From a virus (Duplodnaviria; Caudoviricetes), in IMG/VR virus record IMGVR_UViG_3300042885_001472: a stretch of 64,000 bases of DNA; one strand, written 5' to 3'. Shown here in pieces: positions 28,242-52,274 of this stretch. The number at the start of each line of letters is the position of its first letter. Within the stretch, counting starts at the first letter, position 1. The position numbers and the translations under genes are program-made. The notes beneath the pieces were generated by a model. The model made no database searches. It worked only from the letters and a program-made list of their open reading frames with translations, and was not told the DNA's origin.

Positions 28242-28973
28242 TTATAATAAACCTTTTTCTAATCTATCGTTTTTTATGAATTTATATAACTCTTTATATT
28301 TTTTCATAGCTATTCTGATATCTTTCGTATTCAATAATGTATATTCCCGGATATGTGATAAAATACGATTTTTATTGAATTTAGAACTACCTGAGATGTT
28401 ATCATCCAGTATGTTTTCCCAACTATTCAATAATTCAAGTAAGGCTTCCCCCACTTTTATCTCATTTTCAGACATCTTCTTATCACCATTAATCCTACCT
28501 CTAATTTTATTAGATATTTCCTTAAAAAATTCCTCAATACTACCATTAGGGTTATCTATAGTATAACTATAACTTTCATTCTCATCTATATTAGTATGTA
28601 AATCTTCATAGGATGAAAATTGTCGAATATCTTTATCATACTTAATAATTTTACCTAATAAATAGTTTTTAACGATAGTTCCATAGTAAGAATAAGCTTT
28701 CTTATTCTCACCTGGATCAAATTTATCGAATTTAGTCATTAAGAAAGATAAGGTATCACTATGTAAATCCTCAAAAGACATATCTTTTGAATATAATTTA
28801 TATCTTCTGATAATACTTTCAATCATCGTATTTAATGGTTTCCTTAAATAGGAATCATAAATCTTTGATTTTTTAACCTGATCTGTTTCTTCTATGAATT
28901 TAACTACCGCTTTTTCTTGTTCAACACCAAAATATGGAGTTCCAGAAGATACTTTTTTTTGGGGTTCTAACAT
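28242..28973 (-). CDS. gp55: phage RNA polymerase sigma factor (T4 gp55-like late sigma)
   Basis: Region 2-like LNTMIESIIRRYK..DLHSDTLSFLMTKFDKFDPGENKKAYSYYGTIVKNYL; no region 4 HTH recognised. Confidence 0.75.
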   Translation of the reverse strand: MLEPQKKVSSGTPYFGVEQEKAVVKFIEETDQVKKSKIYDSYLRKPLNTMIESIIRRYKLYSKDMSFEDLHSDTLSFLMTKFDKFDPGENKKAYSYYGTIVKNYLLGKIIKYDKDIRQFSSYEDLHTNIDENESYSYTIDNPNGSIEEFFKEISNKIRGRINGDKKMSENEIKVGEALLELLNSWENILDDNISGSSKFNKNRILSHIREYTLLNTKDIRIAMKKYKELYKFIKNDRLEKGLL

Positions 28974-28982
28974 CTTTCACCA

Positions 28983-29774
28983 TTAAATTAGGGGACTATA
29001 TGTTATGTTTCTATCTTGATTAAAGAAATATTCTTTTTTGGCTAAATTCATCCAAAATCTGGCTTCATCTGGGTTAATAAAATCTTTATAACCTTTAAAT
29101 AATGAACCATCTCTTTGGTTAGTATGTTTATAACCTAATTTAGGAATAACCATAGTGCCACAACTATTATGTGTCATTCTTAATAAGAATTCATAAATAA
29201 AACTTAATTTCATTGAAGCTTTATAACCACCACATTCTTTATATTTTTCTGTTTTAATAACCATACCACTAGTATTGAAATTAGGGTAAGCTTGAATTGT
29301 ATTCTCATCTAAGAAACCAATTTCTTCAGAGAAATCTTTAGCCCAAACCGGTTCATTGGTGAAGGATAAGAAATTACCATTAGGATCTGTCTCAACAACT
29401 AACGGTAAGAAAAGATCATTATTAGGATAAGCTCCAATGTATTCTTGGACATTCTTAAACCAAATTTTAGAATATTCATCATCAGCTTCTAAAACACTGA
29501 AAAATTCAGTATCAATATTTTCAACACCAAAATTAACTTGTGATGCGAAATCTTCTTTACCAGTTGTATTTTCAACAACTTTAACCATATCTTTAATAGT
29601 TCCAAAATCAATAGATTCTATTTGAGTTTTTAACTCTTCATTTGGTGTTCTAACAATTAATACCATGTCAGGTTTTACAACCTGATTTTCTACACTCTTA
29701 ATTGCGTTTTTTAACCAATTAACCAAATTATTTTCGGTTGTATGGATTGGGATTATTACACTTACTTTACTCAT
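28983..29774 (-). CDS. glycosyltransferase family 2 (GT-A)
   Basis: VSVIIPIH, VNFGVE, FSVLEADDEY. Confidence 0.85.
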   Translation of the reverse strand: MSKVSVIIPIHTTENNLVNWLKNAIKSVENQVVKPDMVLIVRTPNEELKTQIESIDFGTIKDMVKVVENTTGKEDFASQVNFGVENIDTEFFSVLEADDEYSKIWFKNVQEYIGAYPNNDLFLPLVVETDPNGNFLSFTNEPVWAKDFSEEIGFLDENTIQAYPNFNTSGMVIKTEKYKECGGYKASMKLSFIYEFLLRMTHNSCGTMVIPKLGYKHTNQRDGSLFKGYKDFINPDEARFWMNLAKKEYFFNQDRNITYSPLI

Positions 29775-29775
29775 C

Positions 29776-30870
29776 TTAGTTTACGTTTGTTACATTATTA
29801 TTTGTCATTAATGAAATTAGTTCCATTTTTCTTTTTTGAATTAAATTACCATAGGTGGCTTCAATACCTTTAACTTGTTCTTCAGTTGTATATTTACCTT
29901 CAATAGAAGCGTCAATTTTTTCATACAATTCAGCTGGGATATTATCTTCTAACCATAATCTAATATATGTTGCGATTAGGTCTGAAATCTTTAAGAAGTC
30001 ATTTGTCCAAATACCATTATCTTTAATAACTAAATTATTTTCACCATCATTTTCTTCCATCCATTCTGGTAACATATTAGGTATTTTACCAATAACTGGT
30101 ACACCACATTTCATAGATTCAATTGGGAAAGTACCAAATGAAGAAATATCGTCAACCCATACAGAAACACAAGATTCTGATAATGTCTTAGCGAAATTCT
30201 TTTTAGGGATTCCTCTTAAATCTCTAAATGTAACCCATTTAAATAAAGGATTTTTTAAGTAAAAAGTTTTAACAATTTTTAACATATCCTCTTGTTTACG
30301 AGTACTAATCGCAACAATTGGTTTTTGTGGTTTACTTGATTTAGCGAAATATTCTGGGATACTCACCGGGACTACATCAATATTCATTGATGGGAATAAA
30401 GACGCGATATATGATTTTTGTTTTTCAGTTGTAGTAATAACATCTGTAATACCATAATCACTCCAACTAGAACCTAAGTTAAGTATTTCTAAAATATAGT
30501 CATAACATTGTGACAATACAATTCGTTTACAAGGCATCTTAGATGTTTGTTCCATCATATTAGCGAAAATTTCTGGTATGATTAAAAAATCAGCTGGTGA
30601 AACTTTTAATTCTTGTGATTCAATTGAGATGTGTGGTAATGACGCGTATTCTTCACCTAACCAAGTACCTACACTTGAATATTCATTTTTTTCATGTAAG
30701 ATATAAGATTTATATCCTAAATCATTTAATACTTTAGCGTGTTCATAAACATTCGCTACCCATCCAACTGGATTATTTTTTGTGTCCATTACAAAAAAGT
30801 AAAAACCGAAGTTTTTATCGTCTAACTTTTTTAAGTTTTCTTGTGCTTGTTGATTTACTGTGTTTTCCAT
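29776..30870 (-). CDS. glycosyltransferase (GT-B, GT4-like)
   Basis: DFLIIPE, SSFGTFPIESMKCGVPVIG. Confidence 0.8.
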   Translation of the reverse strand: MENTVNQQAQENLKKLDDKNFGFYFFVMDTKNNPVGWVANVYEHAKVLNDLGYKSYILHEKNEYSSVGTWLGEEYASLPHISIESQELKVSPADFLIIPEIFANMMEQTSKMPCKRIVLSQCYDYILEILNLGSSWSDYGITDVITTTEKQKSYIASLFPSMNIDVVPVSIPEYFAKSSKPQKPIVAISTRKQEDMLKIVKTFYLKNPLFKWVTFRDLRGIPKKNFAKTLSESCVSVWVDDISSFGTFPIESMKCGVPVIGKIPNMLPEWMEENDGENNLVIKDNGIWTNDFLKISDLIATYIRLWLEDNIPAELYEKIDASIEGKYTTEEQVKGIEATYGNLIQKRKMELISLMTNNNVTNVN

Positions 30871-30890
30871 ATTATTATTTATTTTTATTA

Positions 30891-31301
30891 TTATTCTTCT
30901 TCTTGTAATATATCGTATTTTAATAATGTATTAAAAGCGATTTTAAATGGTATTGTTGTGTTATTATTTAAACCCGCTAATCCTAACTTATCATCAATTT
31001 CAGTGTGAGTATTCATAATAGTTTCAATCATCATCCTTAACACTTCCCATTTAGAAATGTCCACTTGGATACTTGAACCCGTGTCTGGTAAGAATAACAT
31101 ATCCTCACCCATTAGTATTTCTGGTTCTACAACCTTTTTACTTTTACTCTTTTTTACAGGAACCGGTGGTGGTAAGACTTCCATCATAGGTATCTCATTT
31201 TCGATTGGATCAATTCTAATCACTTCAATAATTGAAGCCATATTGACGTAAAATACATTACCACCAAACTCTAAATATGGTTTATCTTTCTTTCTATTCA
31301 T
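30891..31301 (-). CDS. hypothetical protein
   Basis: In operon; central Pro-rich linker. Confidence 0.7.
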   Translation of the reverse strand: MNRKKDKPYLEFGGNVFYVNMASIIEVIRIDPIENEIPMMEVLPPPVPVKKSKSKKVVEPEILMGEDMLFLPDTGSSIQVDISKWEVLRMMIETIMNTHTEIDDKLGLAGLNNNTTIPFKIAFNTLLKYDILQEEE

Positions 31302-31893
31302 CTATATCGGTATATTCTATTGTTATACTTGTTGTTAATTTTTCAATAAGATTTTGATCAATAATATCTTTAATTTTTTCAATACTATAATCAGATTTAA
31401 TTTCAGTATTATATTGACAATCCACTTTAATACTTACTTTATCATTTGGTTTTGAATTTAATACACTTGGGTTGGCTGTAATAATGATATCACTTTCAGA
31501 CCACATATCACTTGGTTTTGAAACAAATCTAATACGATCTACTTTACAACCAGTTTTACTTAAGAAAAATAGTGTGGCTGGTTTACTATTACCCATTTCA
31601 ACGCTAACGATTTCTAATTTATGACCTAAGTCTTTAATGGTATCATTTAAATTATTTAAATGAGAAATGGTATTAACTCTTAATTCATCCGCGTGACCAA
31701 ATATTTCTAAAGACGCTTCATCATATAAAAAACTTTCTATTGTTTCACCATCTTCTTCAAAAATAAAATAACGTTCTAATTCTAAACTATCTATTGGTTC
31801 AATAGGATCTAGTTCTGTATATTTAGTATACGTTTTTTTAAGTTTATTTAAGAAATCCCTTAAGACTTCATTTATATCTACTGAAATTGTCAT
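31294..31893 (-). CDS. HAD-fold 5'-nucleotidase-like protein (degenerate motifs)
   Basis: ISVDINEVLRDF (DxD to DxN); motif IV region reads DIIITAN. Confidence 0.55.
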   Translation of the reverse strand: MTISVDINEVLRDFLNKLKKTYTKYTELDPIEPIDSLELERYFIFEEDGETIESFLYDEASLEIFGHADELRVNTISHLNNLNDTIKDLGHKLEIVSVEMGNSKPATLFFLSKTGCKVDRIRFVSKPSDMWSESDIIITANPSVLNSKPNDKVSIKVDCQYNTEIKSDYSIEKIKDIIDQNLIEKLTTSITIEYTDIDE

Positions 31894-31936
31894 AAATAAT
31901 TTTATGAAATAATCTGTTATTGTAAATGGTAAATAA

Positions 31937-32710
31937 TTATTTTTTTACATTATTATTTTTAACTTCTTCTAATCCGTCAAAAATATCTTCTATAATTTTA
32001 ATAATTGGGTTTCTAACGATATCTTCAGCGTTTCTAAGTTCTACAACACCAAAACCTTTCTTACCATTAAACTTTTCAATAACAACTTCTAACGAACTCT
32101 CTCTTTTATTCTTAATGTCTTTTTGTTTAACATCACCAAGAATAATCATTTTAGAATTTTCACCAATCCTTGTCATTAATGTTCTCATATTATCTAAACT
32201 AATATTTTGAGCTTCATCAATAATGATAATTGAATTATCAATACTTCTACCCCTAACATAAGCTATAGGTTTTATTTGGATAAACCCCATTTCTCTTAAT
32301 CTATTAGTTATAGGTTCACCAATAATTTTATTAAAATTATCTAAGAATGAATCCATAAATGGTTCCATCTTCTCATCCATTGTACCTTTTAAAAAACCTA
32401 TATCTTCATCTTTAAGTGTGGTTACAGATTTAACCAAAATTATTTTTTTAAAGTTAAGATCAGGATTTTTTAATAACTTTAAAGCTTCCGCACAAGCTAA
32501 AAATGTTTTACCAGTCCCAGGAAACCCAGAAGCTATAATAATTTCATTCTTATTAATCGCGTCAACTAATTTTTTTTGATTTTCGGTTTTTGGTATTACA
32601 TTTATTTTAATACCATTAAATGGATTAGTGAAATTTAATCTTCTATTAGATTTATATTCTTCCACATCATCGTGATTATCTTGAGTTAATTTCTTAGTTT
32701 TTCTAGTCAT
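31937..32710 (-). CDS. phoH: PhoH-like ATPase
   Basis: PKTENQ, GFPGTGKT, GFLKG, YVRGRSI, IIIDEAQN, ILGDVKQKD, DIVRNP. Confidence 0.95.
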   Translation of the reverse strand: MTRKTKKLTQDNHDDVEEYKSNRRLNFTNPFNGIKINVIPKTENQKKLVDAINKNEIIIASGFPGTGKTFLACAEALKLLKNPDLNFKKIILVKSVTTLKDEDIGFLKGTMDEKMEPFMDSFLDNFNKIIGEPITNRLREMGFIQIKPIAYVRGRSIDNSIIIIDEAQNISLDNMRTLMTRIGENSKMIILGDVKQKDIKNKRESSLEVVIEKFNGKKGFGVVELRNAEDIVRNPIIKIIEDIFDGLEEVKNNNVKK

Positions 32711-32718
32711 ATTTATTT

Positions 32719-33606
32719 TTAGTAGGTTTTAATTATTTCTAAAAGAGTTTTAGATCTTTCAAAGTATGTATGGTTTTGATTTGATCTATTATAACCCGCC
32801 AACTCTATTTTTTTTCTTTCGGTTTCATTATTTAAATAATATTTAACTTTTTCATCTAAATCATTAAAATTTTCATAGACAACAATTTCTTCACCTATTT
32901 TAAATAATTTTTCTAATCCTAGTGTGTAATTTGTTAAAAGTAATGTTTTACATCCAGTTGTCTCAAAAGTCCTATAATTAATATCATTAGATATGTTTCT
33001 ATTGAAATGTATTTTATATGAATTAATTGATTTAACCATATCATCACCAATAACAAATAAATCTTTTTTAATACCAAATTTATCTAAATGGTGTACATAA
33101 TTACTTCTATTTAAAAGATTACCACAAAATCCGATATCAATAGTTTTATCTATTTCCATAGGAAAAATTAGATCGTCTGGATACGCATTAGGAAACCAAT
33201 AAGATTTTTTAACTAGATTATTAAAATAAGGTATATACGATTCAGTAGAATTTAACAATATATTAATATCTAACATCGTACAAAGTTTTTGGTGTTGGGA
33301 TAATACACAATGACTATCTATACTCCAATATATTTTTAATTTTTTACTCTCTCTTATTTCTTTTACTGGTAACCATTCTGGTGTATAATTCTCAATAACA
33401 AAAATAACATCCGCCCATTCTTCTATTTCTGTGAATGGGGTGGAGAAGTTTGGGTAATTTAAACCCCAAACAATTGCTTCAACACCATCATTTTTTAATA
33501 ACGCTCTTTGTAGATTTAAAGATTCGCGATAATTTTTATTCGCTTCGTGTCTACCACACTCTTGTATTATAACTATTTTCATATTATCCAATATCCTGTT
33601 TTCCAA
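32719..33606 (-). CDS. CgeB-like glycosyltransferase (Glyco_trans_1_2)
   Basis: DIGFCGN, YKIHFNRN..DINYRTFETTGCKTLLLT; likely start MKIVIIQ at 33582. Confidence 0.8.
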   Translation of the reverse strand: MENRILDNMKIVIIQECGRHEANKNYRESLNLQRALLKNDGVEAIVWGLNYPNFSTPFTEIEEWADVIFVIENYTPEWLPVKEIRESKKLKIYWSIDSHCVLSQHQKLCTMLDINILLNSTESYIPYFNNLVKKSYWFPNAYPDDLIFPMEIDKTIDIGFCGNLLNRSNYVHHLDKFGIKKDLFVIGDDMVKSINSYKIHFNRNISNDINYRTFETTGCKTLLLTNYTLGLEKLFKIGEEIVVYENFNDLDEKVKYYLNNETERKKIELAGYNRSNQNHTYFERSKTLLEIIKTY

Positions 33607-34112
33607 TCTTTATGACCATCTTGTTGAAAAATTTCACATTTTTTTTCATTTAAAAGTACATCACTTAACGGCCAATTTTCTAAGTTAACTGTACCTTGTT
33701 TATAGTTATCAATAATTAATATTCCACCATCTTTTAATGATTCTATTGATTGTTTTGTACATTCATCTCTCCATTCAACTGGTTCTCCATCAATGATTAT
33801 ACAATCAAATTTTTCTTCTGAGGTGAATTTTGATGGATACGATATAAATTCATTCTTATCCGTTGTAAAGTGTGACGTACATTTATTAGCCCAATCGCGA
33901 TTAGTATCAATAGAAATTACCTCTCTAACATTTTGCCTCCACCAAAAAGTAGAGTCTCCACATCCATATTCAAAAACTTTCCAGTTCTTAATATCCCAAC
34001 TACATAATTTTTCTAAAAATGGTCTTGTATACCAAGGAAAAATTGAATTAGTTCTTGGGTCTACCATCCTACCACCCACTAATGGTTTTATTTTATTAAA
34101 ATCTATTTCCAT
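33579..34112 (-). CDS. SAM-dependent methyltransferase
   Basis: VFEYGCGDST, FDCIIIDG, GGILIIDN. Confidence 0.85.
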   Translation of the reverse strand: MEIDFNKIKPLVGGRMVDPRTNSIFPWYTRPFLEKLCSWDIKNWKVFEYGCGDSTFWWRQNVREVISIDTNRDWANKCTSHFTTDKNEFISYPSKFTSEEKFDCIIIDGEPVEWRDECTKQSIESLKDGGILIIDNYKQGTVNLENWPLSDVLLNEKKCEIFQQDGHKDWKTGYWII

Positions 34113-34183
34113 TATCTATTAATTATTTGTTTAGTGAATTTTGACTTTTTAATTCAATGATAAAAATAAGAATGATAGAACCC

Positions 34184-34678
34184 TCATTCATTATTTAAAT
34201 GATTAAAAAGTTCAATGTTATTAGTCCATAATGTAGTCCAATTTTTATGGGTTTTAAAATCAATTTTCTTATAATCATTACTAGTTCTAACTCTATTCCA
34301 TCCATAACCACCTTCTTCAGTATCATGTGCAATAATAACTGGACAATTTTTATCCATCATAAAATTAATACATTCTGGTCTAGAATCTCCGTGCCCATCA
34401 ACAAATGAAAAATCTATTTTTTCTGGATAAGATAGTTCTAAAAATTTTTTTGGACCAATACTACAAAAGTATGTCCAATTTTTGTTTTCATTAAATTTAA
34501 TAACAACTTGATTAAACCATTGTTCAGATTGCATTTCAATTGACATTAATTGTTCTGAATTTTTGATTAAAAAATCTGTTGAATAGTTTCCAGTACCAAA
34601 CTCCACTGAGTTTTTTGGTTTTCCAATAAAATTAATAATTTTATCTAAGTGTTCTAAATGTGTTGAATATAAATCCAT
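34184..34678 (-). CDS. SAM-dependent methyltransferase (Methyltransf_24-like)
   Basis: VEFGTGNYST, IDFSFVDG, IIAHDTE. Confidence 0.8.
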   Translation of the reverse strand: MDLYSTHLEHLDKIINFIGKPKNSVEFGTGNYSTDFLIKNSEQLMSIEMQSEQWFNQVVIKFNENKNWTYFCSIGPKKFLELSYPEKIDFSFVDGHGDSRPECINFMMDKNCPVIIAHDTEEGGYGWNRVRTSNDYKKIDFKTHKNWTTLWTNNIELFNHLNNE

Positions 34679-34679
34679 T

Positions 34680-35372
34680 TTATTTTAGTAATTTTTCTAT
34701 TTCTTTTTTATTTTTTTGGTACGGCCTTAATAAATGTGAATCTATATAAAAACCAGAATTTAATTTATTAATATCGTAAACCCATTTACCTCTATCAATT
34801 CTTCTTGAAAAATCTCTTGTCTTTATTATAAGATTTTCTTTGAATAATTGAAGTCTATCGTACATAAAATTTTCATCAACATTCCATTTTTCACCATAAA
34901 TAGAAAATAACATTTTACAATATTCTTCAAATGACATATTTTCAATGTTTAAATATTTTTTAAAGTTTGATGAGTGTGATAAAACATAACACATTGGGTA
35001 ATATGGTACATCACCATATGGTTGACCAGAATATAATATCATATTAGTTTCAGTCAATTCTTTTAAATGTTCATTAAAATAATTAGCATTTAAAGGTAAC
35101 ATATCAATATCTGAAGTTAGTAAGTTACCATCAATAAAATTAGCCACAAATAATCTAACTACTTGTGATTGGAATCCTGTAGATACAAAATTTAATGATT
35201 TAATTTTATGGATAATCCCACGCTCAGTTTCAATGATTTCATCTTTATCTGTCACATTAATATAATAAGTTTTAAAACCTAAATCAAACCATTTTTTACT
35301 AACTATCTCATAAAAATCTTTATATAGTGGATTATCGTCAGATGAGATAATTACATAATCAATTTTTTTCAT
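34680..35372 (-). CDS. GT-A-like glycosyltransferase
   Basis: LLTSDIDMLPL (DxD), YPMCY, RRIDR, DSHLLRP. Confidence 0.6.
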   Translation of the reverse strand: MKKIDYVIISSDDNPLYKDFYEIVSKKWFDLGFKTYYINVTDKDEIIETERGIIHKIKSLNFVSTGFQSQVVRLFVANFIDGNLLTSDIDMLPLNANYFNEHLKELTETNMILYSGQPYGDVPYYPMCYVLSHSSNFKKYLNIENMSFEEYCKMLFSIYGEKWNVDENFMYDRLQLFKENLIIKTRDFSRRIDRGKWVYDINKLNSGFYIDSHLLRPYQKNKKEIEKLLK

Positions 35373-36010
35373 TATTTATCAAAATTTTTATTTATCCAAA
35401 CTTCATTGATTCCTATTTCTGAATCAAATTCAAATCCATTTAGTGATAAAATTTTTCTACACTCTTCATCTTTTGTTGGATTATATTTATCCATCTCTAT
35501 TAAAACTATGTGTACTGGTATTTTCCAATCAAATGTTTTTAGTACTTCTAACTCCCCACCTTCAACATCTATAGAAAATAGATCTACTTTTTTAATATTT
35601 AAATTTTCTAAAATTTTATTCATAGGTTTTGATTCTACCACATAACTAGGCGTTTTATCTAACCCCCAACCTTTAATATGTTTTTCGTGCATAGAATTTT
35701 TAATACCACCCAAAGCACCATTACCTAAAAATTCAATATTACCTTCAGTTTCAGATACAGCGTAATTAAAATTATAACATTTTGGTCTATTTCTAATTAA
35801 TTGACTGAATTGTGATGTCGGTTCAATAATTACGCCACCCCAATTTAAATGTCTTTCAAAAAATAAAGTATTTGAATATGTTATTCCATCCATACCACCT
35901 AATTCAATAAAAAAACCATTATGGTAATTTAAATACTTTTCGTATAATATTTTGTCTTCTTGTTGTTGACTATAAAACATAGTTATTATTTTTATTTTAT
36001 ATATTTCCAA
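35372..36010 (-). CDS. FkbM family methyltransferase
   Basis: YSQQQED, FIELGGMDG..SNT, IIEP, VDLFSIDVEGGE; likely start MFYSQ. Confidence 0.92.
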   Translation of the reverse strand: MEIYKIKIITMFYSQQQEDKILYEKYLNYHNGFFIELGGMDGITYSNTLFFERHLNWGGVIIEPTSQFSQLIRNRPKCYNFNYAVSETEGNIEFLGNGALGGIKNSMHEKHIKGWGLDKTPSYVVESKPMNKILENLNIKKVDLFSIDVEGGELEVLKTFDWKIPVHIVLIEMDKYNPTKDEECRKILSLNGFEFDSEIGINEVWINKNFDK

Positions 36011-36654
36011 TATTGTGGGTGTCTATTTTCATTATGATCAAATACATCACCGACAAATTCTTTATTTTTTCTTTCCAAAGGAAATGGTTTTTTATCTAAA
36101 TTATAATTATGAAATTCATCATGAATTATTGAATTATCTTTAACTATAGGGTAAATTATTCTAGCTAAAAAATTTTGATCTACCTGCCAAAATTCTCCTT
36201 TAACAAATTCATCAATGAGCTTTTTCATCTCAAGTAAAACACCTTTTTTAACACCCCACATACCCCCTAATATTTCTGTACCATGCCAAGGATGATCTCT
36301 CATAATATGAAATCCTTTATCTGATTCCATCCATTCATCAACCGCAGATTTTTCTCTCATACTTAACCTTGAATCACAATCTCTGGAAATCATAACATCA
36401 ACATTATCTTCAGACGCGGGGTAAAATCTCCAAAACATTCCAGACCAATTACCTTCTTCAGGCATTTCTACAATCTCTACATTTTTAAAGATTTTGAGGG
36501 TATCTATAATATCTTTTGGAACTGATTGTCCGATGTAATATCTACATATCCAACCAGGATATGTTTTTTCGGCAATAACCGCATTTTTTAAAGCACCTAA
36601 AGTATATTTTGGGTTATCCCCCCAAAGAGAAAATGTTATTAATTTTTTACCCAT
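35992..36654 (-). CDS. glycosyltransferase-like protein
   Basis: ITFSLWG, MFWRF, SRDCDSR (DxD), HIMRDHPWH, ILGGMWG, VDQNFL. Confidence 0.6.
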   Translation of the reverse strand: MGKKLITFSLWGDNPKYTLGALKNAVIAEKTYPGWICRYYIGQSVPKDIIDTLKIFKNVEIVEMPEEGNWSGMFWRFYPASEDNVDVMISRDCDSRLSMREKSAVDEWMESDKGFHIMRDHPWHGTEILGGMWGVKKGVLLEMKKLIDEFVKGEFWQVDQNFLARIIYPIVKDNSIIHDEFHNYNLDKKPFPLERKNKEFVGDVFDHNENRHPQYWKYIK

Positions 36655-37339
36655 TTAAATCAAAGTTTTTTTTATGTCTTTTATGGTAAACTATTTCATC
36701 GGACTTCATTAAAGAATCGTTTCTCATATATAATTGATCATATCTTTCACGATTATTACCTATAGAAAAATGTCTGTGTTCTATTATAACTACATCAAAA
36801 TACTTTTGTTTACCTAATCTATTGGCCACATCAGTAAATTCATTATCACAATATAATGATTTGTAATCTGGGTGATAAATATAATTAAATCTATCATAAT
36901 ATTTTTTACCTAATATACATAAAGTGTTAATTCTATTTTTTTGGAATCCATCATTAAACCAAGTTACACCATCAAAATCCGGATAATGTTCATTAAATTT
37001 ATTTCTAATAATATCATCAAACCCTAAACATACTGGTACCATATCATCCGACAATAGTACAATTATGTCCCACTCTTTTTTGAAATCATTTAAGTCCCTA
37101 TTTACAGCGTCAATTTTTGATTCACTTTTACCAAAAAAGTAATTCATATTTGGGTATGATTTTAACTTTTCTATAACAGTTTCATTATTCATAGTTATAT
37201 CATCTTCATCTAATGTTAAAAGAAATGAAAAATTTTCTTTATCATTTAGATTAGTTATTGTCGCGTCTAAAACTTCAAAAACCCTATTAGGTCTAGTTCT
37301 TGATGGTAATTTAAAAAGTATTTTACTATTTGTTTCCAT
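36647..37339 (-). CDS. glycosyltransferase family 2
   Basis: KLPSRTRP, SKIDAVNRD, VLLSDDM, LYCDNEF, IIEHRH. Confidence 0.8.
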   Translation of the reverse strand: METNSKILFKLPSRTRPNRVFEVLDATITNLNDKENFSFLLTLDEDDITMNNETVIEKLKSYPNMNYFFGKSESKIDAVNRDLNDFKKEWDIIVLLSDDMVPVCLGFDDIIRNKFNEHYPDFDGVTWFNDGFQKNRINTLCILGKKYYDRFNYIYHPDYKSLYCDNEFTDVANRLGKQKYFDVVIIEHRHFSIGNNRERYDQLYMRNDSLMKSDEIVYHKRHKKNFDLNG

Positions 37340-38869
37340 TTATCCTCTATTATTATATAATATTTGTAATTGTGATTGTACAGTTTTTTGATCAACTACC
37401 GGTGTTTCTGTTGGATACATACCATGTTTTCTCTTGTAGTATTCAGAACCACTTTTAAAGTTTTTAGTCCATTCTTCACTTCTCGCGATTGTACTATTCT
37501 CTATAGATCCTGGAATTTCTGTTAAATAATCCCAACTTCTATCAATGTCAGCGAAGTACCAAAAACTTGGATGGAATCCTTTTTTATGTGTTTCAAATGT
37601 ATGGTCAACATGTTCCCAAGCGTTTTTAAAATGTGGATCAAATAACCCAGTTTTTTCAATAACCTTTCTATGATAATATGAAAACGCACCTACTGAATTT
37701 GGGTATAAAACGATTTTAACATTCTCCTCATAACCAACAACCATTCTTGGATTAGGATCGCCAGTATTATTAAGTTTAGCTCTTTCTTCTAATGTTGAAA
37801 AACCTCCAGAATTCTTTTTATTGGCCGGACCATGTAAAGCGAAATTTAAATGTTTAACACCACTAATTAAAGAGTGTTTAATATATTCTTCAAAAACATT
37901 TTCATCTTTAATTAAAATATCATCTTCAATAATAAAGATATGTTCACAACCCTTATCCATTAACCACTGAATTGCGTCACTTTTTGATTTACCAACACAT
38001 TCATTTGTTTTATGTTGTATGATAGTAGCTTGTTTAGGATATGATCCCTCATTATAAGGTGTACCATCATTAACTATCACAAAATTTTCTACCCACTCTG
38101 GCACTTTAAACGCACTTTCTTTTATTCTATGTTCAGCGTTATATGTTACCATACCAACACCAATACTAGTTCTATCAAATTTTAATTTTTCTTCAAAAGT
38201 TTTATTTTTAGTTAATCTTACCGGTAACTTATCTTTATACTTTTCCTCAAATTGTTTTTTATTTTCTTCCCACTGATCATTAGTCATACCGATAGAAAGA
38301 TGTGTAACTTTGATATCTGTTACAACACCAACTTTAACACCTAACAAATAATTTGGAAATGAGAAAGAAATGTCATAAAAATGGAATCCTTTAAAATCTT
38401 CATCAAAGTTATGTTTTAATTTATCTTTTTGTACAGCGAAGAATAATCCATCTATTACAACCACATCTTTAATCTTTTCATTTTGATCGTCACTGTACTT
38501 ATTAGTCCATTTCTTACCATCATGTTTATGATTAACAATTCCGGTCATAGATTCTTTAAGAGTCCACCATCTACCATCTAATAGATCAGTAGTACCAGCG
38601 ATACCAATAATACCATACTCTGGATCTTTCTTAAAGTGTTTTAATACTTTTTTACCCCAATTATTAGTATCCCATAAAACATCATCGTGAGTAAAAACCA
38701 CAACGTTATGTTTGGCCATCTGTAAACCTTCATTATAAACTTGTGTTAAAGATTTCTCACCATTATTTATGAATTCTAAAATTTCAACATTAATAAGACC
38801 AATGTTTTTTTGAATTTCTTTTTGGAACTCTGGTTTATGTTCCCTTGTACTATAAACTATTGTAATCAT
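37340..38869 (-). CDS. two-domain GT2 glycosyltransferase
   Basis: Domain 1: VFTHDDV, VIDGLFFA, FHFYD. Domain 2: IVNDGT, FIIEDDI, WEHVDH. Confidence 0.88.
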   Translation of the reverse strand: MITIVYSTREHKPEFQKEIQKNIGLINVEILEFINNGEKSLTQVYNEGLQMAKHNVVVFTHDDVLWDTNNWGKKVLKHFKKDPEYGIIGIAGTTDLLDGRWWTLKESMTGIVNHKHDGKKWTNKYSDDQNEKIKDVVVIDGLFFAVQKDKLKHNFDEDFKGFHFYDISFSFPNYLLGVKVGVVTDIKVTHLSIGMTNDQWEENKKQFEEKYKDKLPVRLTKNKTFEEKLKFDRTSIGVGMVTYNAEHRIKESAFKVPEWVENFVIVNDGTPYNEGSYPKQATIIQHKTNECVGKSKSDAIQWLMDKGCEHIFIIEDDILIKDENVFEEYIKHSLISGVKHLNFALHGPANKKNSGGFSTLEERAKLNNTGDPNPRMVVGYEENVKIVLYPNSVGAFSYYHRKVIEKTGLFDPHFKNAWEHVDHTFETHKKGFHPSFWYFADIDRSWDYLTEIPGSIENSTIARSEEWTKNFKSGSEYYKRKHGMYPTETPVVDQKTVQSQLQILYNNRG

Positions 38870-39026
38870 TCGTTTTTGATATATTAAAAATTTTTAAAAA
38901 TGTTTCCGGTTTTAATTCTTTTTGTTTACTAAAAAATAGTATAGCTTCTTCCTCATTATCACAAGTATAATAACTTATAACTTCTTTTTCAAGATTATTT
39001 TTAAAATAAAAAAAATATTTTTCCAT
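38850..39026 (-). CDS. small hypothetical protein (58 aa), absent from the ORF track
   Basis: MEKYFFYFKNNLEKEVISYYTCDNEEEAILFFSKQKELKPETFLKIFNISKTNDYNSL*; TAATG coupling with dut. Confidence 0.65.
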   Translation of the reverse strand: MEKYFFYFKNNLEKEVISYYTCDNEEEAILFFSKQKELKPETFLKIFNISKTNDYNSL

Positions 39027-39670
39027 TATTTAACACCGGTACTTCCAAATTTACCATCACCTCTTTCGGATTCTGATAAAGTAAATTTCTTATAAAGATT
39101 TACAGTATTATTTGTCGCTACTGAACTAATAACACCTTGGGCGATTCTATCACCATTTTCAATAACAAAATTATTTTTAGAATGGTTAATTAATATTACT
39201 TGTATTTCACCACGATAACCAGAATCTACTGTACCAGGTGAATTTAATACCGTAACACCATAATTCATAGATAAACCACTTCTAGGTCTTACTTGTAACT
39301 CATAACCTTCAGGAATTTCAAAGTGTAATCCGGTTGGTATAGCTTTCCATTCACCAGGTTTTAAAGTTTCGGTATCTTCTAATAAATTAGCCCTTAAATC
39401 AAAACCAGAATCACCTTTATGTGAATACTTTGGATCTTCATTTTTAGATTTATTAATGAAATTAATATCAACTTTAAAGTTACTAAATTGATTCATTAAT
39501 TCATCAATATTTTTTTTAATAATATTTTCACTCTGTTCAATAGACGCTTTAATATCGTCATCATCAAATAAAGAATCTATAGTACCACCTAACAACCCTT
39601 TTATTTGTTCAATTGATAAATCATTATCATCTATAATATCTTCTGAATCCATTTTATCTATTTTTTTCAT
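39026..39670 (-). CDS. dut: trimeric dUTPase with acidic N-terminal extension
   Basis: DSGFDL, PTGL, RPRSGL, GTVDSGYRGEI, RIAQGV, RGDGKFGSTG. Confidence 0.95.
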   Translation of the reverse strand: MKKIDKMDSEDIIDDNDLSIEQIKGLLGGTIDSLFDDDDIKASIEQSENIIKKNIDELMNQFSNFKVDINFINKSKNEDPKYSHKGDSGFDLRANLLEDTETLKPGEWKAIPTGLHFEIPEGYELQVRPRSGLSMNYGVTVLNSPGTVDSGYRGEIQVILINHSKNNFVIENGDRIAQGVISSVATNNTVNLYKKFTLSESERGDGKFGSTGVK

Positions 39671-40886
39671 TTATTAATTTTAAGTATAAATCTTTTCTTT
39701 TTTCAGTCACCACATTTATATGATATCTTTCATTAACTGTTTTAAATAATGACTCACCTAATTCTTTAATTTTTTCCGGTTCATTAATTAACCACTTAAT
39801 TGATTTATACCAATCCTTATGATTTTTAACACTATCAACAAGTATTCCATTACCCTCACCAAATCCATTTTCAGAATGATTAGCGTGTTGAATATCAATT
39901 TTATATGGTCCGTAATTTTGTGCGATAATAGCTTTTTTATGGAAACCAGATTCAACAACTTTTAATTGACTTTTAACTTTATTAAAAATGTTTTCTTCAA
40001 TTGGAGCTAATGATATATCAAATAAATTGTAATTGGTGGCGTAACTACTAATTGGTTTTGTCCAAACCCTTCTATAAGGTTCATTTGTAGTATCAAACTC
40101 CTCATCCTTAGTATATCTTAATAAGTATTCTAAATATTTAGGACTAACTGATTTATATTTATTAGTAAAAATTTCTTCATACCTACACCATACAGATTCT
40201 TCCGGTTTAATTGGTCGTTGTGTTTGTTCACCAGTTTTCTGATCAATCATAGTAACAGTACCTCTAGTATCAAACCCACATAAAACGAATTGTATTTTAT
40301 CCATTAACCCATCAGATTGTAATTTAGAAACTAAACCATTTAATAGACTTAAATCGTGGAAATGTGAAGAACCACCTAACCAACCAATTCTAATTCTTTC
40401 ACTTGGTTCTGGGTTAGATTGATATTGTTTTTCTCTAGGATCAATTGCGTTTTCAAGTACAAAAACATTTTTATTATGTTTTCTAATTTCATCCGCGAAT
40501 AATGATGTTGTTGTTATAACGTTTTTAGCTACTTTAATATTATTAAGTATCATCTTATCAATACCCTTTGATTTAATCAAACTATAAGATGGATGATGTG
40601 GACCAGGCTCCCAATAATCATCAAGATCCATAACAGTAACAATACCTAAGTTATCTAATTTTTCTAAAGTTTCTTTAGTTTTAGTATAATCTCCTATAGC
40701 TCTATGGTAATGAATTAAATCATATTGTTTTAAATATTCAACATCATCTAAATTTGGATTATAGTCAATATCCACATGAAATATATCTGAATACATTTCT
40801 TGTAAATGAATGTGTGGTTTTGTGGATCTATAATACCCTACTCCGGTACGATCTGATGGGACTACTAAAATCTTACTTTTCTTCAT
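39654..40886 (-). CDS. GT-B glycosyltransferase
   Basis: GVGYYR..PH, MDLDDYW, IGWLGGSSH, DISLAP..FNKVKSQLKVVE. Confidence 0.85.
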   Translation of the reverse strand: MKKSKILVVPSDRTGVGYYRSTKPHIHLQEMYSDIFHVDIDYNPNLDDVEYLKQYDLIHYHRAIGDYTKTKETLEKLDNLGIVTVMDLDDYWEPGPHHPSYSLIKSKGIDKMILNNIKVAKNVITTTSLFADEIRKHNKNVFVLENAIDPREKQYQSNPEPSERIRIGWLGGSSHFHDLSLLNGLVSKLQSDGLMDKIQFVLCGFDTRGTVTMIDQKTGEQTQRPIKPEESVWCRYEEIFTNKYKSVSPKYLEYLLRYTKDEEFDTTNEPYRRVWTKPISSYATNYNLFDISLAPIEENIFNKVKSQLKVVESGFHKKAIIAQNYGPYKIDIQHANHSENGFGEGNGILVDSVKNHKDWYKSIKWLINEPEKIKELGESLFKTVNERYHINVVTEKRKDLYLKLINEKNR

Positions 40887-43441: not shown

Positions 43442-45100
43442 ATGAGTAATTTTAGAACACAAGTTAATTTTTCGTCACAGATAAAAGAATATCCAAATAC
43501 TGATGGTACACTTTCAGGTTCTGTTAATGTCCAACAATATACTATTTTAGGGACAGACTATTTAGACCTACCTTTAGGGTTAGATAATACTAGTACCGGT
43601 ATTACTGCGACTTACGGACCAATAATTAATGGGACTTTCACAGGTACTACCGGTAGTACCACTTTTTATTTTAATGATAGTAATATGGATATTGCCGGAC
43701 CTTATTTATCCGCGATAACGGCTTCTAATAGTGGACTAACTCAACATGTTGACGCTTTTAGTATAACTAATACTATAATCGTTGATGGTAATAGTTTTGA
43801 CATCTATTATAGTGGTGTGTCTTTTGATATGACACCAACAAACCTAGATGAATATTCTCCAGGTGAGTTTTCAGGGGGAACTTTCACTAATGTATTAAAC
43901 TACCTTTCCGGAACAACATACCCTTGGTGGTTTTTAAAGTCTGGTTCAACAACTTGGAATGAAGTTAAGGGTAGAACCCAAACAGATCGTTTAACCATTA
44001 TTGATGGGGCGAATACCGATTACGTCTTAATATCATCTAACTCAAATGGTGACGCTATTTGGCGACCATTGGACTTTGTAATTTCTGGGGGTTGTTTATC
44101 GGATGTTTGTATTAAAGGAATTTTATCTTTGATAAGAGATTTATATATAAAAGGTTTAACATTTGGTACTGGTGGTAGTGATGTCGGCTCAACTGGTACA
44201 ACATATGTGACAAATACAGCTGGAGGTAAGGATGTTTTATTTTATAACTCCACTGGTATTAGAAATACTGGTTTTGGTAGTGAAGTGTTAAGTGCTAATA
44301 CTATAGGTTATTCCAATACTGGTCTTGGTACTTACGCACTTAAAAGTAATAGTACTGGTATTGATAATACTGCCATTGGTACTTATTCATTAGAATCAAA
44401 CACTATAAATGGTGGTAATACGGCCATTGGTTCTGGTTCTTTACAAAGTAATACTATTGGTTATGGTAATACTGGAATAGGTTATAATTCTATACCTAGT
44501 AATATTGATGGTTATGTTAATACTGGGTTAGGGATATATGCGTTACATGATAATGTTAGTGGTTATGAAAATGTTTCTGCTGGTCACTACTCTTTATTCC
44601 AAAATACTACTGGTTATCAAAATACTGGTATAGGGAATCAATCTATAACTTCTAATACCACTGGTAACATAAATACTGGTATTGGTTATGGTGCTTTAGG
44701 TGGTAATACAATAGGTTTAGGTAACACATCAATAGGTTGGGGTTCTGGACTTAGTAACACTACAGGTAATTATAACACTTTTTTAGGTTTAGGTAGTGAT
44801 TGTATCACCACCAACTTAACAAACGCTACCGCTGTAGGTTATAACGCCATTGTTGATCAAAACGATTCAATGGTATTAGGTAATGGTGTTATAAATGTTG
44901 GTATAGGTATAAGTACACCAACCTCAACATTACATTTAATAGGTCTTAGTGGTTTTAGTCAATTAAGATTGGAAATTCAATATACACCAACTGGTACTAC
45001 AGATAGTAATGGTAGTCAAGGTGATACAGCTTGGGATGATAGTTACATATACATCAAAACATCAGTTGGCTGGAAAAGATCTGGTTTATCAACATTCTAA
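43442..45100 (+). CDS. fibre/adhesin-like virion protein with NTxxG (YadA-head-like) repeats
   Basis: About 14-aa repeats NTGxG.xL..NT.G; NVGIG..P...LH; C-terminal GSQGDTAWDDSYIY. Confidence 0.8.
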   Translation: MSNFRTQVNFSSQIKEYPNTDGTLSGSVNVQQYTILGTDYLDLPLGLDNTSTGITATYGPIINGTFTGTTGSTTFYFNDSNMDIAGPYLSAITASNSGLTQHVDAFSITNTIIVDGNSFDIYYSGVSFDMTPTNLDEYSPGEFSGGTFTNVLNYLSGTTYPWWFLKSGSTTWNEVKGRTQTDRLTIIDGANTDYVLISSNSNGDAIWRPLDFVISGGCLSDVCIKGILSLIRDLYIKGLTFGTGGSDVGSTGTTYVTNTAGGKDVLFYNSTGIRNTGFGSEVLSANTIGYSNTGLGTYALKSNSTGIDNTAIGTYSLESNTINGGNTAIGSGSLQSNTIGYGNTGIGYNSIPSNIDGYVNTGLGIYALHDNVSGYENVSAGHYSLFQNTTGYQNTGIGNQSITSNTTGNINTGIGYGALGGNTIGLGNTSIGWGSGLSNTTGNYNTFLGLGSDCITTNLTNATAVGYNAIVDQNDSMVLGNGVINVGIGISTPTSTLHLIGLSGFSQLRLEIQYTPTGTTDSNGSQGDTAWDDSYIYIKTSVGWKRSGLSTF

Positions 45101-45123
45101 TAATTAAAAATTAAATTACAAAT

Positions 45124-45369
45124 ATGAAACTAAATCCACTTGAAATAATATTAACAGAAGATGATATACAAAAATTAATATCATCAACATTTGATAGTGT
45201 TAATTTAATCAATAATTTAAATAACATCCCCAATAAAACAGAAAATGATGTTAATAGGATTGTTGATAATAAAAAACATTTAGAAATTATATCAAAAAAA
45301 GATTGGTTTATCGCCAATTTAACACCAAGTCAAAAATCTATAGTTGAATCAATTATTTATTCTATTTAA
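45124..45369 (+). CDS. small protein following the fibre (possible fibre chaperone)
   Basis: Position after a fibre gene; NKKHLEII.KKDW. Confidence 0.5.
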   Translation: MKLNPLEIILTEDDIQKLISSTFDSVNLINNLNNIPNKTENDVNRIVDNKKHLEIISKKDWFIANLTPSQKSIVESIIYSI

Positions 45370-45393
45370 CCATTAAGTTAATATTTATATGGT

Positions 45394-46992
45394 ATGAGTA
45401 TAGTTAACAATTATGCGTTTAAAAATTTAAGGTTAAGATTAACTAATGTTAATTATTGGGATTTAGTATTAAGTTCTGACATGAGAGGGTATGATCATAC
45501 TACACTATACTGTAATAATATAATTTCAGGTGATACACTTTTAGTTTATTTTGATTTTAATGATAGTGATTGTGTTAGTGGTCGCACAATTTATAGTTTA
45601 ACCACATGGAAAGACGCCATTTTACCTAAATCTGGCTTGACATTATGTGATATTGGTTTAACTGGTGTTGATAATGGGTTTGTACCAAATTTAACCGGTG
45701 AAACTTTATACATCACTAGTGGAGATCCTAGATTCTATATGACCCAAGTAACGGGTAGCACATATGAATATCCAATTATATTTACTGGAGATTGTTCTGG
45801 TAATTACAGTCAGTTTAATGGTGGGTTTTATCAAGGGTTTTATAAACTTGAAAATTATCCTATTAAAAAAATAAGTGATAATAAATTTTTAGATTGTATT
45901 CCTCACGATAATGATTGTTTAGATAATGTTTGTACTAATGGTTGTAGTTGTCCACCACCAGAATTACCAAATCCAGTAATTGATTATCAAGTTTTACCTA
46001 ATAAATTTAGTGTTGGTTGGACATCAGAATTTTGGTTAAAAAAAGATTCTAACCCTATAATACCTAACAATATATTAAATAGTATTTACCCTAATAATAA
46101 CGGATTTTTTCATACTATGGGGTTAAGAGCTGAAAATAAATTTTGGGATTTTTTCTCCGGAGAAACTGGTCATACAACTTGTTTAGATAGTGGACATACA
46201 TTAAACCCACCTATTTTACATACAGACGCTATGAGTGGGATGAATCCATTTTTATATTACACTTTAAAAAATTGTGATAATCAAACTTGTGATACTTGTC
46301 AATGTTCTGTTTGTGAATGTACAGATACCGGTTCATATCCATATTATGGTGAAAAGGACTATATCACTGATGTTGTAGACAATATAATAGGGTTTAGAAT
46401 TAGAGATGATGGTAGTATAGGATATCGTAAATTATCTTTTAGTGGTCAATGTTCCGGTTCAACTATTGAATGTTGTAGAACAAGTGGTGGTACTTATGTT
46501 ACCGGTTATACTGTTGAAGAATCATATTCAATGTCAGGTATGGTCTCATCAGATAAATGGGTTCATGTTGTAGTTAGATATGACGCGGATTATATGATAC
46601 CGGAAGATAAATTAGATTGCCCTTGTAGTCCATTAAATCCACAATATTGTTCAAGACCTGGTCAACTATCATTTTATATTGATGGTTATTTGAAATATAG
46701 AGTTAGAGTTGTTAAAGAAATGATACCTAAAGGTTTGGATGATTGGCCAGAAAAACAATTAGGTGTTCCATACACTATGAGTTTAGGTGGTGGTACACAA
46801 GGTTTAATTGAAACAAGAACATTTGGTGGTCCTGACCCAAAAGATTATGATTTACCAATACAAGAAAATTTCGCTGGGAGTTTTATGGGGGGGATTTCTA
46901 AGTTTAGATTTTACTCTGAGCCTTTAGATGTCACCCAATTAAGATGTAATTATAAAACGGAAAAAAATAAATATAACACTAAAATTTGTTAA
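45394..46992 (+). CDS. Cys-rich virion protein with C-terminal LamG/ConA-like segment
   Basis: 24 Cys; KWVHVVVRY, LSFYIDG, GGISKFRFYSEPL. Confidence 0.7.
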   Translation: MSIVNNYAFKNLRLRLTNVNYWDLVLSSDMRGYDHTTLYCNNIISGDTLLVYFDFNDSDCVSGRTIYSLTTWKDAILPKSGLTLCDIGLTGVDNGFVPNLTGETLYITSGDPRFYMTQVTGSTYEYPIIFTGDCSGNYSQFNGGFYQGFYKLENYPIKKISDNKFLDCIPHDNDCLDNVCTNGCSCPPPELPNPVIDYQVLPNKFSVGWTSEFWLKKDSNPIIPNNILNSIYPNNNGFFHTMGLRAENKFWDFFSGETGHTTCLDSGHTLNPPILHTDAMSGMNPFLYYTLKNCDNQTCDTCQCSVCECTDTGSYPYYGEKDYITDVVDNIIGFRIRDDGSIGYRKLSFSGQCSGSTIECCRTSGGTYVTGYTVEESYSMSGMVSSDKWVHVVVRYDADYMIPEDKLDCPCSPLNPQYCSRPGQLSFYIDGYLKYRVRVVKEMIPKGLDDWPEKQLGVPYTMSLGGGTQGLIETRTFGGPDPKDYDLPIQENFAGSFMGGISKFRFYSEPLDVTQLRCNYKTEKNKYNTKIC

Positions 46993-47005
46993 ATAAAGAA
47001 AAAAA

Positions 47006-47524
47006 ATGGTAACAAAATACATAATAAATAATTTACCTAGTCAAACGATTACTGGTGATTTAAATATTTCTGAAAAAACAGTGGTAACAAGTTTCCAAAT
47101 GACCTCTGGAGCTACAGATGGTTATGTATTAACTTCTGATGTTGATGGTAATGGAACTTGGCAAGTATTAGCCGGAGGTGGTAATACTATAGATGAGTTT
47201 TATATAGAACCATCAACAACAAGTTTTACTTGGGATATTAGTGGTAATAGTACTAATTATAAAATTATTTTAACTGGTAATACAACAATAGATTTAAATA
47301 ATGTTAGAAATGGTGATTATGGTACATTAATCATTCAACAAGATGTTGTTGGTGGTTATGGAATAACACTTGGTAATTTAAATGGTAGTTCTACAAACCA
47401 TTTAGTTGTAGGTAATGGTTCTGGTACTTTAGGTTTGACTGGAACTCCTAATTCAATTGATATACTATCGTTTGTTTATGATGGTACTAATGTTTATTGG
47501 AATAATGGTTTAAATTATACATAA
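47006..47524 (+). CDS. short fibre-like virion protein
   Basis: GYVLTSD.DGNGTWQ linker; LTGNTTI..GTLIIQQD..IDILSFVYDG tip domain. Confidence 0.65.
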   Translation: MVTKYIINNLPSQTITGDLNISEKTVVTSFQMTSGATDGYVLTSDVDGNGTWQVLAGGGNTIDEFYIEPSTTSFTWDISGNSTNYKIILTGNTTIDLNNVRNGDYGTLIIQQDVVGGYGITLGNLNGSSTNHLVVGNGSGTLGLTGTPNSIDILSFVYDGTNVYWNNGLNYT

Positions 47525-47525
47525 T

Positions 47526-48392
47526 ATGAGTAATAGATATTTTTTTAATTCATTATTATCGTTAGATAGTGTTGGTATTAATCCATTGGATTTAAATCCA
47601 TATACATATTTTCAAACTTATAACCCATTATTTTTAACACCAACAACCCCTAACATTGGTGATTCAATAACAGAAATTTATAAGTACAATGATAGTTTAT
47701 ATATCGCTTCAGGGGATACTGGGTGTGTAGGTACTTGGGAAAATTTGGATGGTAAGAATATGATTTATATACCAGGAATTGATGGTGGTTGTTGGCCACC
47801 TCCTTGTTCTGGTACTTGTTCAACCTACTATACAACCAACCAAAATATTAGTTTTATGTCAATGAGTGGTTATGAGTATACAGTATATTTTGTTGGCAAA
47901 CCTTTATCTGGTAATTCTTTTTCAGATGGTCATATATTTAGTGACATTGAAACATCCGTATTATTTGGTGGTAGATACGTATCTATGTATGTTAAAGATA
48001 ATAAAGATATTTATTTTAGGTCTAAACGTTTAGGTATTAATTCTGATGTCATTGACATACCATTTGAAATAAATATTTCTGAAAATGATTTGGAAACTAA
48101 AAATACTAGAGTTTTTTCACTTAGAACTAAAGATCCATTAAATACCACATCGATAGCAGCAACTTCTTATATTAATGGGGTAGAAACAACCGCTATCACA
48201 CAAACAAATGTGAGTAATGTGACAACAGAAAGTTCTATACCATTTTTAATTGGCGCTGGAGCAACAGATGGACCTTCTTATGAAATGTATCAAGGATATT
48301 TTGGAGAATTAATAATTTTTAACACTTATCACGATTTAACAACCCATAATAGTATCATAGATTTCTTAAAAAATAGATGGGGAATTAATTAA
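47526..48392 (+). CDS. LamG/ConA-like lectin-fold virion protein
   Basis: YTVYFV, SYINGV, FLIGA, YFGELIIFN..H. Confidence 0.65.
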   Translation: MSNRYFFNSLLSLDSVGINPLDLNPYTYFQTYNPLFLTPTTPNIGDSITEIYKYNDSLYIASGDTGCVGTWENLDGKNMIYIPGIDGGCWPPPCSGTCSTYYTTNQNISFMSMSGYEYTVYFVGKPLSGNSFSDGHIFSDIETSVLFGGRYVSMYVKDNKDIYFRSKRLGINSDVIDIPFEINISENDLETKNTRVFSLRTKDPLNTTSIAATSYINGVETTAITQTNVSNVTTESSIPFLIGAGATDGPSYEMYQGYFGELIIFNTYHDLTTHNSIIDFLKNRWGIN

Positions 48393-48486
48393 AACTCTTT
48401 AGATTAAATAGGTGGAAAAATAAATTTCACTAATACTATTCTTTAAATATTTATTAATAAATAAATTATAGAATAATAATAAAAAT

Positions 48487-49821: not shown

Positions 49822-49822
49822 G

Positions 49823-51207: not shown

Positions 51208-51210
51208 AAC

Positions 51211-52217: not shown

Positions 52218-52274
52218 AGTAAAGTAACTACATATTTATATTTAAATAATATTGGAAAGTGAAAATATTTTAAA

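Follow-up and report, generated by a model that had tools for sequence, protein, structure and literature searches.

A soluble glycan-building locus with an exchangeable cassette in a lineage of aquatic jumbo phages

Phage glycosyltransferase clusters and the locus in the window

Clusters of glycosyltransferase (GT) genes in large aquatic phages have already been published, and the locus described here, at positions 28983-40886 of the viral record IMGVR_UViG_3300042885_001472 (a stretch of 64,000 nucleotides, hereafter the window), belongs to a recurrent type of island, of which it is a small and typical example. The window comes from the genome of a T4-like jumbo phage and carries thyA, terminase, portal, prohead protease, major capsid protein and PolB genes; its DNA recurs across many lake metagenome runs, with identical contigs in independent lake metagenomes, and the nearest capsids in GenBank are 40-43% identical to its own. 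Moraphages (Perez-Hernandez et al. 2025, PMC12619734) are alike, by gene content only, in being freshwater T4-like jumbo phages with predicted Bacteroidota hosts, four core GTs, a dUTPase, PhoH and a sigma factor, and in that study the four core GT orthogroups are listed without a locus, a cassette or a target; in the present locus four conserved GT units accompany those same three genes. Cyanomyophages and pelagimyophages possess hypervariable islands rich in GT and nucleotide-sugar genes in their structural region, described as lipopolysaccharide (LPS)/cell-wall and host recognition clusters and assumed there to modify the host O-chain (PMC7029224, PMC12801897). The present locus differs from these islands in its lineage, in its insertion site (from dut and a 509-aa GT gene to phoH), in being bounded by a conserved GT kernel and in having no fibre genes inside.

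Soluble phage GTs clustered outside late operons are present in the mycobacteriophages Che8, Corndog and Myrna (Freeman et al. 2023, as summarised in PMC12363180 and PMC13445384). The locus in the window is likewise a phage-encoded cluster of soluble GTs, in which no export genes were found; those phages, however, have two or three GT genes, whereas the window has eight and its relatives have more, together with a swappable cassette and, in relatives, their own sugar pathways. The Actinobacillus NGT/Agt system (AmGGT, PDB 8XSG/8XSH; PMC12159676) shares the fold of one kernel enzyme, GT-B 364, and soluble, lipid-independent chain extension, but no NGT-like initiator was recognised within the locus (no genome-wide search for NGT was made) and there is no sequon enrichment. 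Phage DNA glycosylation systems (T4 AGT/BGT; GTs linked to 5mYOX/TET or ThyS) resemble the locus in combining GT-A and GT-B folds with nearby nucleotide-metabolism genes, and bacterial Wzx/Wzy O-antigen and capsule loci differ from it in their priming phosphoglycosyl transferase, flippase and membrane polymerase, none of which was found. A fixed kernel, an exchange point inside a GT gene and evidence against DNA as the target were not found in the literature searched.

The locus comprises 15 open reading frames (ORFs), all on the minus strand and mostly abutting or overlapping, in agreement with the co-oriented block of about 12 kb reported in a preliminary description of this DNA, which was made from the sequence alone. 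That description had placed the block downstream of the baseplate and sigma genes; in the direction of transcription it lies upstream of both, between fibre-like and baseplate genes. It also overlooked two further ORFs (136 aa and 58 aa) and the organization of the locus as a fixed frame around an exchangeable cassette. The features are listed below.

39654-40886, minus: core GT-B of 410 aa, GT4-like retaining fold, left edge of the frame (PHROG 7162, E 1e-38; AlphaFold2 (AF2) model)
39026-39670, minus: dUTPase (dut), frame gene, not glycan-related (PF00692; 18 relatives)
38850-39026, minus: 58-aa ORF (ORF call)
38195-38869, minus: N-terminal GT-A domain of the 509-aa gene, about residues 1-225, conserved (PF13712, E 7e-32)
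37340-38185, minus: C-terminal GT-A domain of the 509-aa gene, exchangeable, where the variable cassette begins (common to only 4 of 18 relatives)
36647-37339, minus: cassette GT-A-like protein, 230 aa (PHROG 14945, E 9e-22; four relatives at 46-49%)
35992-36654, minus: tentative cassette GT-like protein, 220 aa, DxD motif (Atlas feature likeness)
35372-35980, minus: FkbM-family O-methyltransferase, 202 aa from ATG (PF05050, E 3e-19)
34680-35372, minus: tentative cassette GT-like protein, 230 aa, DxD motif (Atlas feature likeness)
34184-34678, minus: S-adenosylmethionine (SAM) methyltransferase, 164 aa, Methyltransf_24-like (glycine motif; structural matches)
33579-34112, minus: SAM methyltransferase, 177 aa (PF13578, E 1e-5)
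32719-33582, minus: CgeB/YkvP-like GT-B, 287 aa from ATG, end of the cassette (PF13524, E 7e-26)
31937-32710, minus: PhoH, right edge of the cassette (PF02562; 20 relatives)
31899-31926, minus: sigma70-like promoter candidate heading the operon from the HAD-like gene to sigma (comparative motif count)
31294-31893, minus: HAD/NT5C-like protein, probably not catalytic (21 relatives; motif I)
30891-31301, minus: conserved 136-aa protein (kept among relatives)
29776-30870, minus: core GT-B of 364 aa, closest solved structure AmGGT, from the Agt (alpha-1,6-glucosyltransferase) family (profile, Foldseek, VIA)
28983-29774, minus: core GT2 (GT-A) of 263 aa (PF00535; 21 relatives)
28242-28973, minus: phage sigma factor, which ends this run of genes (Sigma70_r2, E 9e-5; starts 9 bases past the GT2 stop)

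The locus holds eight GT-like genes, six well supported and two tentative, and three O-methyltransferase genes, which together support a soluble glycan-building and glycan-methylating system. The six well-supported GTs (28983-29774, 29776-30870, 32719-33582, 36647-37339, 37340-38869 and 39654-40886) are recognised by Pfam, PHROG or GT-B models, which agree with the earlier calls of a double-domain GT2, two GT-Bs and a CgeB-like GT; phoH and dut were also called correctly. The earlier count of eight is tentative for the other two, the 220-aa and 230-aa (34680-35372) DxD proteins, which apart from this motif are assigned by Atlas likeness (0.91-0.94, about 130-138 shared features) to GT8/nucleotide-diphospho-sugar transferase clusters; they have no detectable relatedness to each other, and the 220-aa protein has no homolog in 21 relatives. 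The three methyltransferases were called correctly: two match PF05050 (FkbM) and PF13578, and the 164-aa protein was recognised by structure comparison, with a TM (template modelling) score of 0.75-0.81 to Methyltransf_24/_3 clusters.

A fixed frame, a variable cassette and the kernel enzymes

Loci were joined from viral contigs and then compared across about 20 related jumbo phages. The frame order GT-B 410, dut, GT 509, cassette, phoH, HAD-like, 136 aa, GT-B 364, GT2 263, sigma holds in 18 relatives and is rearranged in another, and the order phoH-HAD-GT364-GT263-sigma is kept in 45 of 48 further loci. The cassette measures 1.5-26 kb (median about 13 kb; 20 loci), differs in content in nearly every genome, its 297 genes falling into about 170 families, and, wherever it is present (20 loci), lies between genes of the kernel. 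Other cassettes contain epimerases, RmlD, GDP-mannose dehydratase-like proteins, DegT and cytidylyltransferases, as well as acetyltransferases, sulfotransferases, radical-SAM enzymes and numerous methyltransferases, and so the reported lack of nucleotide-sugar synthesis genes is true of the window but not of the lineage, in which cassettes carry whole pathways. Two loci (L226, L227) have the three-GT kernel without the 509-aa gene and without a cassette, and in L057 the GT364-GT263 pair stands alone. One further conserved gene, about 300 aa long and lacking any evident enzyme motif (L001:17942-18835), is present at varying places in 11 cassettes and in the cassette-less L057, and is not in the window.

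Cassette exchange, judged from sequence identity, begins within the 509-aa gene (37340-38869; PF13712 and PF00535). Its N-domain is 44-70% identical across 18 relatives, whereas its C-domain is common to four of the 18, the remainder having unrelated C-domains. The cassette of the window has seven genes in 4.6 kb, four of them without a homolog in 21 relatives; being the third smallest of 20, and given that the cultured cyanophage S-SCSM2R has 13 GTs (PMC12801897), it contradicts the earlier statement that the system is larger than usual for a phage. At the other end, the CgeB-like GT-B is found among relatives only in the closest, L055, at 85% identity, and a relative with 94% capsid identity has the CgeB gene in common and a different gene beyond it. 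The window phoH is only 48% identical to that of L055 whereas neighbouring genes are 74-85% identical, suggesting that phoH was exchanged with the cassette edge. Neither codon use nor GC content at third codon positions nor TGCA content marks the cassette as foreign.

Models of GT-B 410 and GT-B 364 both have the GT-B fold (pLDDT, the predicted local accuracy score, about 89). The AF2 model of GT-B 410 matches GlgM/MshA/BshA, and the protein is 40-66% identical in 19 relatives; homologs occur in an uncultured phage of 735 kb and, with 24% identity, in Phapecoctavirus/Justusliebigvirus, the Phapecoctavirus/phi92-like phages having a cluster of four GTs. Flavobacterium immuto phages and Mel-JY01, which are cultured relatives by capsid, and XacN1 gave no profile match to GT-B 410 or 364, one of these searches having been run without a positive control. 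Some GT-B 410 homologs have in-frame insertions, giving lengths of 779-1165 aa (L036:9986-13483, L030:8483-10897, L031:8438-10777); that of L036 contains an intein-splicing domain and LAGLIDADG endonucleases, and that of L030 a LAGLIDADG domain. That inteins sit in this GT suggests that it is a conserved, important gene. In L026 (about 9950-10010) and L031 (about 8380-8440) the frame has an in-frame stop about 16 codons past the start and is otherwise intact, and read-through or ribosome hopping there is possible.

GT-B 364 is modelled with the fold of the Agt/AmGGT subfamily: its profile matches AmGGT with E 1e-18, AmGGT is rank 1 in Foldseek, and VIA aligns the two over 314 residues (Z 30.2, root mean square deviation 3.4, next row 23.7) at 18-19% identity, which is too low to fix donor or linkage specificity. 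The gene is present on at least 587 viral contigs but has only five matches in 185,579 species genomes, and the three inspected show phage gene order, suggesting that L225-L227 (of L224-L228, from bacterial and archaeal bins) are probably mis-binned phage DNA. GT2 263 is always paired with GT-B 364. It has E-x-D-D at the metal site and F-I-Y-E-F-L-L-R in place of the usual GT2 E-D catalytic base motif, and may be an altered or inactive enzyme. The HAD-like gene named in the preliminary description is present and NT5C/HAD-like but matches nothing in Pfam or the PDB; at motif I most homologs have S/T-x-N/D and the window has D-x-N, and the DxD nucleophile pair is absent from most. The HAD-like and 136-aa proteins accompany the GT364-GT263 pair and sigma in nearly all relatives.

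Virion proteins as the probable acceptor

The locus is read here, as a probable though not a firm conclusion, as a glycan assembly line in the cytoplasm that works without a lipid carrier and decorates virion proteins of the phage itself. Methylated oligosaccharides on virion proteins had been proposed before; the soluble building and methylating system stands, and virion proteins are the most likely acceptor by elimination and weak homology. The kernel (GT-B 410, GT-B 364 and GT2 263) would attach the first sugars to a phage protein and extend them; the N-domain conserved in the 509-aa protein would then pass the product to strain-specific enzymes (the C-domain of that protein and four further GT-like proteins), and the three methyltransferases would cap the sugars. 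Nucleotide sugars would be drawn from the host, probably a member of Bacteroidota, or from genes beyond the window, relatives bringing their own pathways. Likely acceptors are the adjoining fibre-like proteins (43442-55127), which are rich in Ser and Thr (16-28% against a median of 11%), or a Ser/Thr-rich insertion (20%) in the major capsid protein, and a swap of the cassette would change the surface glycan in a serotype-like manner.

Homology to phages with glycosylated virions points in the same direction, as does the place of the locus beside fibre-like and baseplate genes. The C-domain of the 509-aa protein is 25% identical to Myrna gp234 over 207 columns and matches GTs in 212 Mycobacterium phage records, and it is similar to GTs of cluster F mycobacteriophages; both Myrna and Che8 have glycosylated virion proteins, and Che8 gp110, like Corndog gp38, is a GT reported to be essential for capsid glycosylation (as summarised in PMC12363180). 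Che8 gp108 (L131:3172-4347), annotated only as a glycosyltransferase, combines a GT2 with a TylF/Methyltransf_24 domain at its C-terminus, and this domain matches a gene in the cassette of relative G005. A methyltransferase of that kind is also present in the window, and there is thus a precedent for methylating sugars alongside GTs that glycosylate virions. In Actinobacillus pleuropneumoniae, Agt extends glucose on adhesin proteins in the cytoplasm (PMC12159676). Virion glycoproteins and two GTs are also known from the jumbo phage XacN1, whose GTs are unrelated to those described here (its ORF327-338 match nothing in the loci).

Several observations weigh against the virion as target. N-x-S/T sequons are not enriched in structural genes, which makes O-linkage the better guess. 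The match to Myrna gp234 is weak, and lambdoid-phage GTs of unknown role score alike; gp110, the essential capsid GT of Che8, and gp109 have no phmmer or profile match in the locus. AmGGT takes oligosaccharides and not glycopeptides (PMC12159676), and its likeness to GT-B 364 therefore argues for soluble chain extension more than for an acceptor. Since some relatives have the kernel without a cassette, the two may not be one pathway.

Timing, which the preliminary description had proposed as a check, also fails to support a virion target. An eight-base AT-rich motif stands just upstream of 16 window genes, mostly structural, and is a candidate late promoter. It precedes the 127-aa gene after sigma in 16 of 20 loci, GT-B 410 in one of 20 and the GT pair in none of 22. 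A sigma70-like -35/-10 pattern, by comparison, precedes GT-B 410 in 14 of 20 loci and the HAD-like gene in 15 of 22, against 4-5% in shuffles; the window itself has it before the HAD-like gene only, not before GT-B 410. A generic promoter scan gave chance-level results (119 vs 121), and only the comparative motif count was used. As the promoters of the GT operons are sigma70-like and not late-type, and as the second operon ends in the sigma gene, this operon is probably expressed before the late phase. The GT genes of Che8 are likewise distant from its structural genes. The portal gene has the sigma70-like pattern in place of the eight-base motif, and phoH has the late-type motif in 12 of 21 loci, not including the window.

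A broader reading, held more tentatively and somewhat doubtful as a whole, is that the lineage, represented by the contigs with GT-B 364, displays 'glycotypes': the three-enzyme kernel would start a virion glycan, and the cassette exchanged inside the two-domain GT gene would give a strain-specific methylated, sometimes fucosylated, sulfated or sialic-acid-like product. Such glycotypes would correspond, in phages, to O-antigen loci and to the glycosylation seen in giant viruses. Should the virion indeed bear the glycan, cassette swapping would let large lytic phages vary their surface chemistry, with consequences for adsorption, host recognition, grazing and decay; many genes now classed in aquatic phages as 'LPS auxiliary genes' would then be assigned to virion building instead of host remodelling. 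The target can be tested, as the three conserved soluble enzymes are expressible and one of them has distant homologs in cultured phages of E. coli.

Other targets and further features of the window

The preliminary description had left open the host surface and DNA as targets, and the former retains some probability. In that case the phage GTs would act at the inner membrane face on undecaprenyl-linked precursors of LPS, capsule or glycoprotein, host flippases would export the products, and competing phages or grazers would be blocked. The epimerases, RmlD, DegT, cytidylyltransferases, acetyltransferases and sulfotransferases of the cassettes are typical of O-antigen and capsule loci, the pre-late promoters fit early action on the host envelope, and modification of the host O-chain is how the clusters of pelagimyophages and cyanophages have been interpreted in print (PMC7029224, PMC12801897). 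However, no membrane anchor, priming transferase, flippase or polymerase was found. Genome-wide absences, here and below, rest on near-complete relatives, the window's own genome having been searched within the window. The priming transferase PF02397 and the flippase PF01943 are in none of these relatives, most control genomes being positive. Transmembrane-like segments are absent from the locus proteins, and seven of the 297 cassette genes reach the threshold, each once only, so that no cassette protein is multi-pass. Known seroconverting cassettes use membrane proteins, which counts against the envelope, as does the near absence of GT-B 364 counterparts from species genomes. Since cassettes contain whole pathways, for as many as a dozen linkages, a newly built glycan seems likelier than the alteration of an existing one. 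The absence of a phage flippase does not make a host flippase unusable, and action on host lipid-linked precursors stays compatible with the data; remodelling of the host envelope is nonetheless unlikely.

It is less probable again that the kernel, here with the HAD-like and 136-aa proteins, has a job of its own, for instance the glycosylation, in the middle phase, of a small molecule or of a regulatory protein from host or phage, and that the cassette alone builds a surface glycan. The kernel exists without the 509-aa gene or the cassette, or as the GT364-GT263 pair, in the loci named above; sigma is transcribed together with this pair, GT-B 410 is similar to GT4 enzymes that act on small molecules, and GT2 263 has F-I in place of the usual E-D base motif. 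A kernel without a cassette is, however, also what a short core glycan would look like, and insertion of the cassette among kernel genes in every cassette-bearing locus argues against separate jobs.

DNA hypermodification, in which the GTs would add sugars to modified bases and methylate them to block restriction and which was offered first in the moraphage paper (PMC12619734), is very improbable despite the dut and nucleotidase-like genes inside the locus, the compatible pre-late promoters and the existence of phage DNA GTs of both folds (bioRxiv 10.1101/2023.12.21.572611), because a base-hydroxymethylating partner is absent from relatives and restriction sites are purged. DNA GTs need a hydroxymethylated base and usually adjoin the enzyme that makes it (bioRxiv 10.1101/2023.12.21.572611). 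No TET/JBP or dCMP/dUMP hydroxymethylase gene is present in the window or in five near-complete relatives (for TET/JBP, the P12024L positive control was detected), and each of these relatives has one canonical thyA and no second thymidylate-synthase-like gene (n=5; the T4 gp42 control was detected). T4 gp42 as a query gave no match; T4 AGT/BGT and P12024L gp27 have no match in the locus, and a C5-methyltransferase is present in one of the five relatives.

The complete 353-kb relative has no GATC, CCGG or CGCG site on either strand, against 1825, 261 and 91 expected, and GATC is absent from 34 of 43 long loci, as is CCGG (34 of 43). In 50 kb of T4, by comparison, only GATC is low (0.30), with CCGG and CGCG at expectation. 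The breadth of this purging fits a genome exposed to restriction enzymes, although a loss of GATC by itself can arise in other ways. Distant GT-B 410 homologs occur in the genus of the phi92-like phages, and these phages are very restriction-sensitive (PMC8594841). In the window, TGCA, TCGA, CATG and GCGC are strongly depleted (TGCA 26, TCGA 18 and CATG 54, against about 170 expected from base composition), whereas GATC and CCGG, purged in most relatives, are not; this pattern suggests a different set of host restriction enzymes or a methylase of its own.

Two further features of the window were noted by eye. Its portal ORF (13199-16609) encodes 1136 aa against about 690 in the complete relative, an intein being likely, and a GIY-YIG-like ORF (1579-2412) follows thyA.

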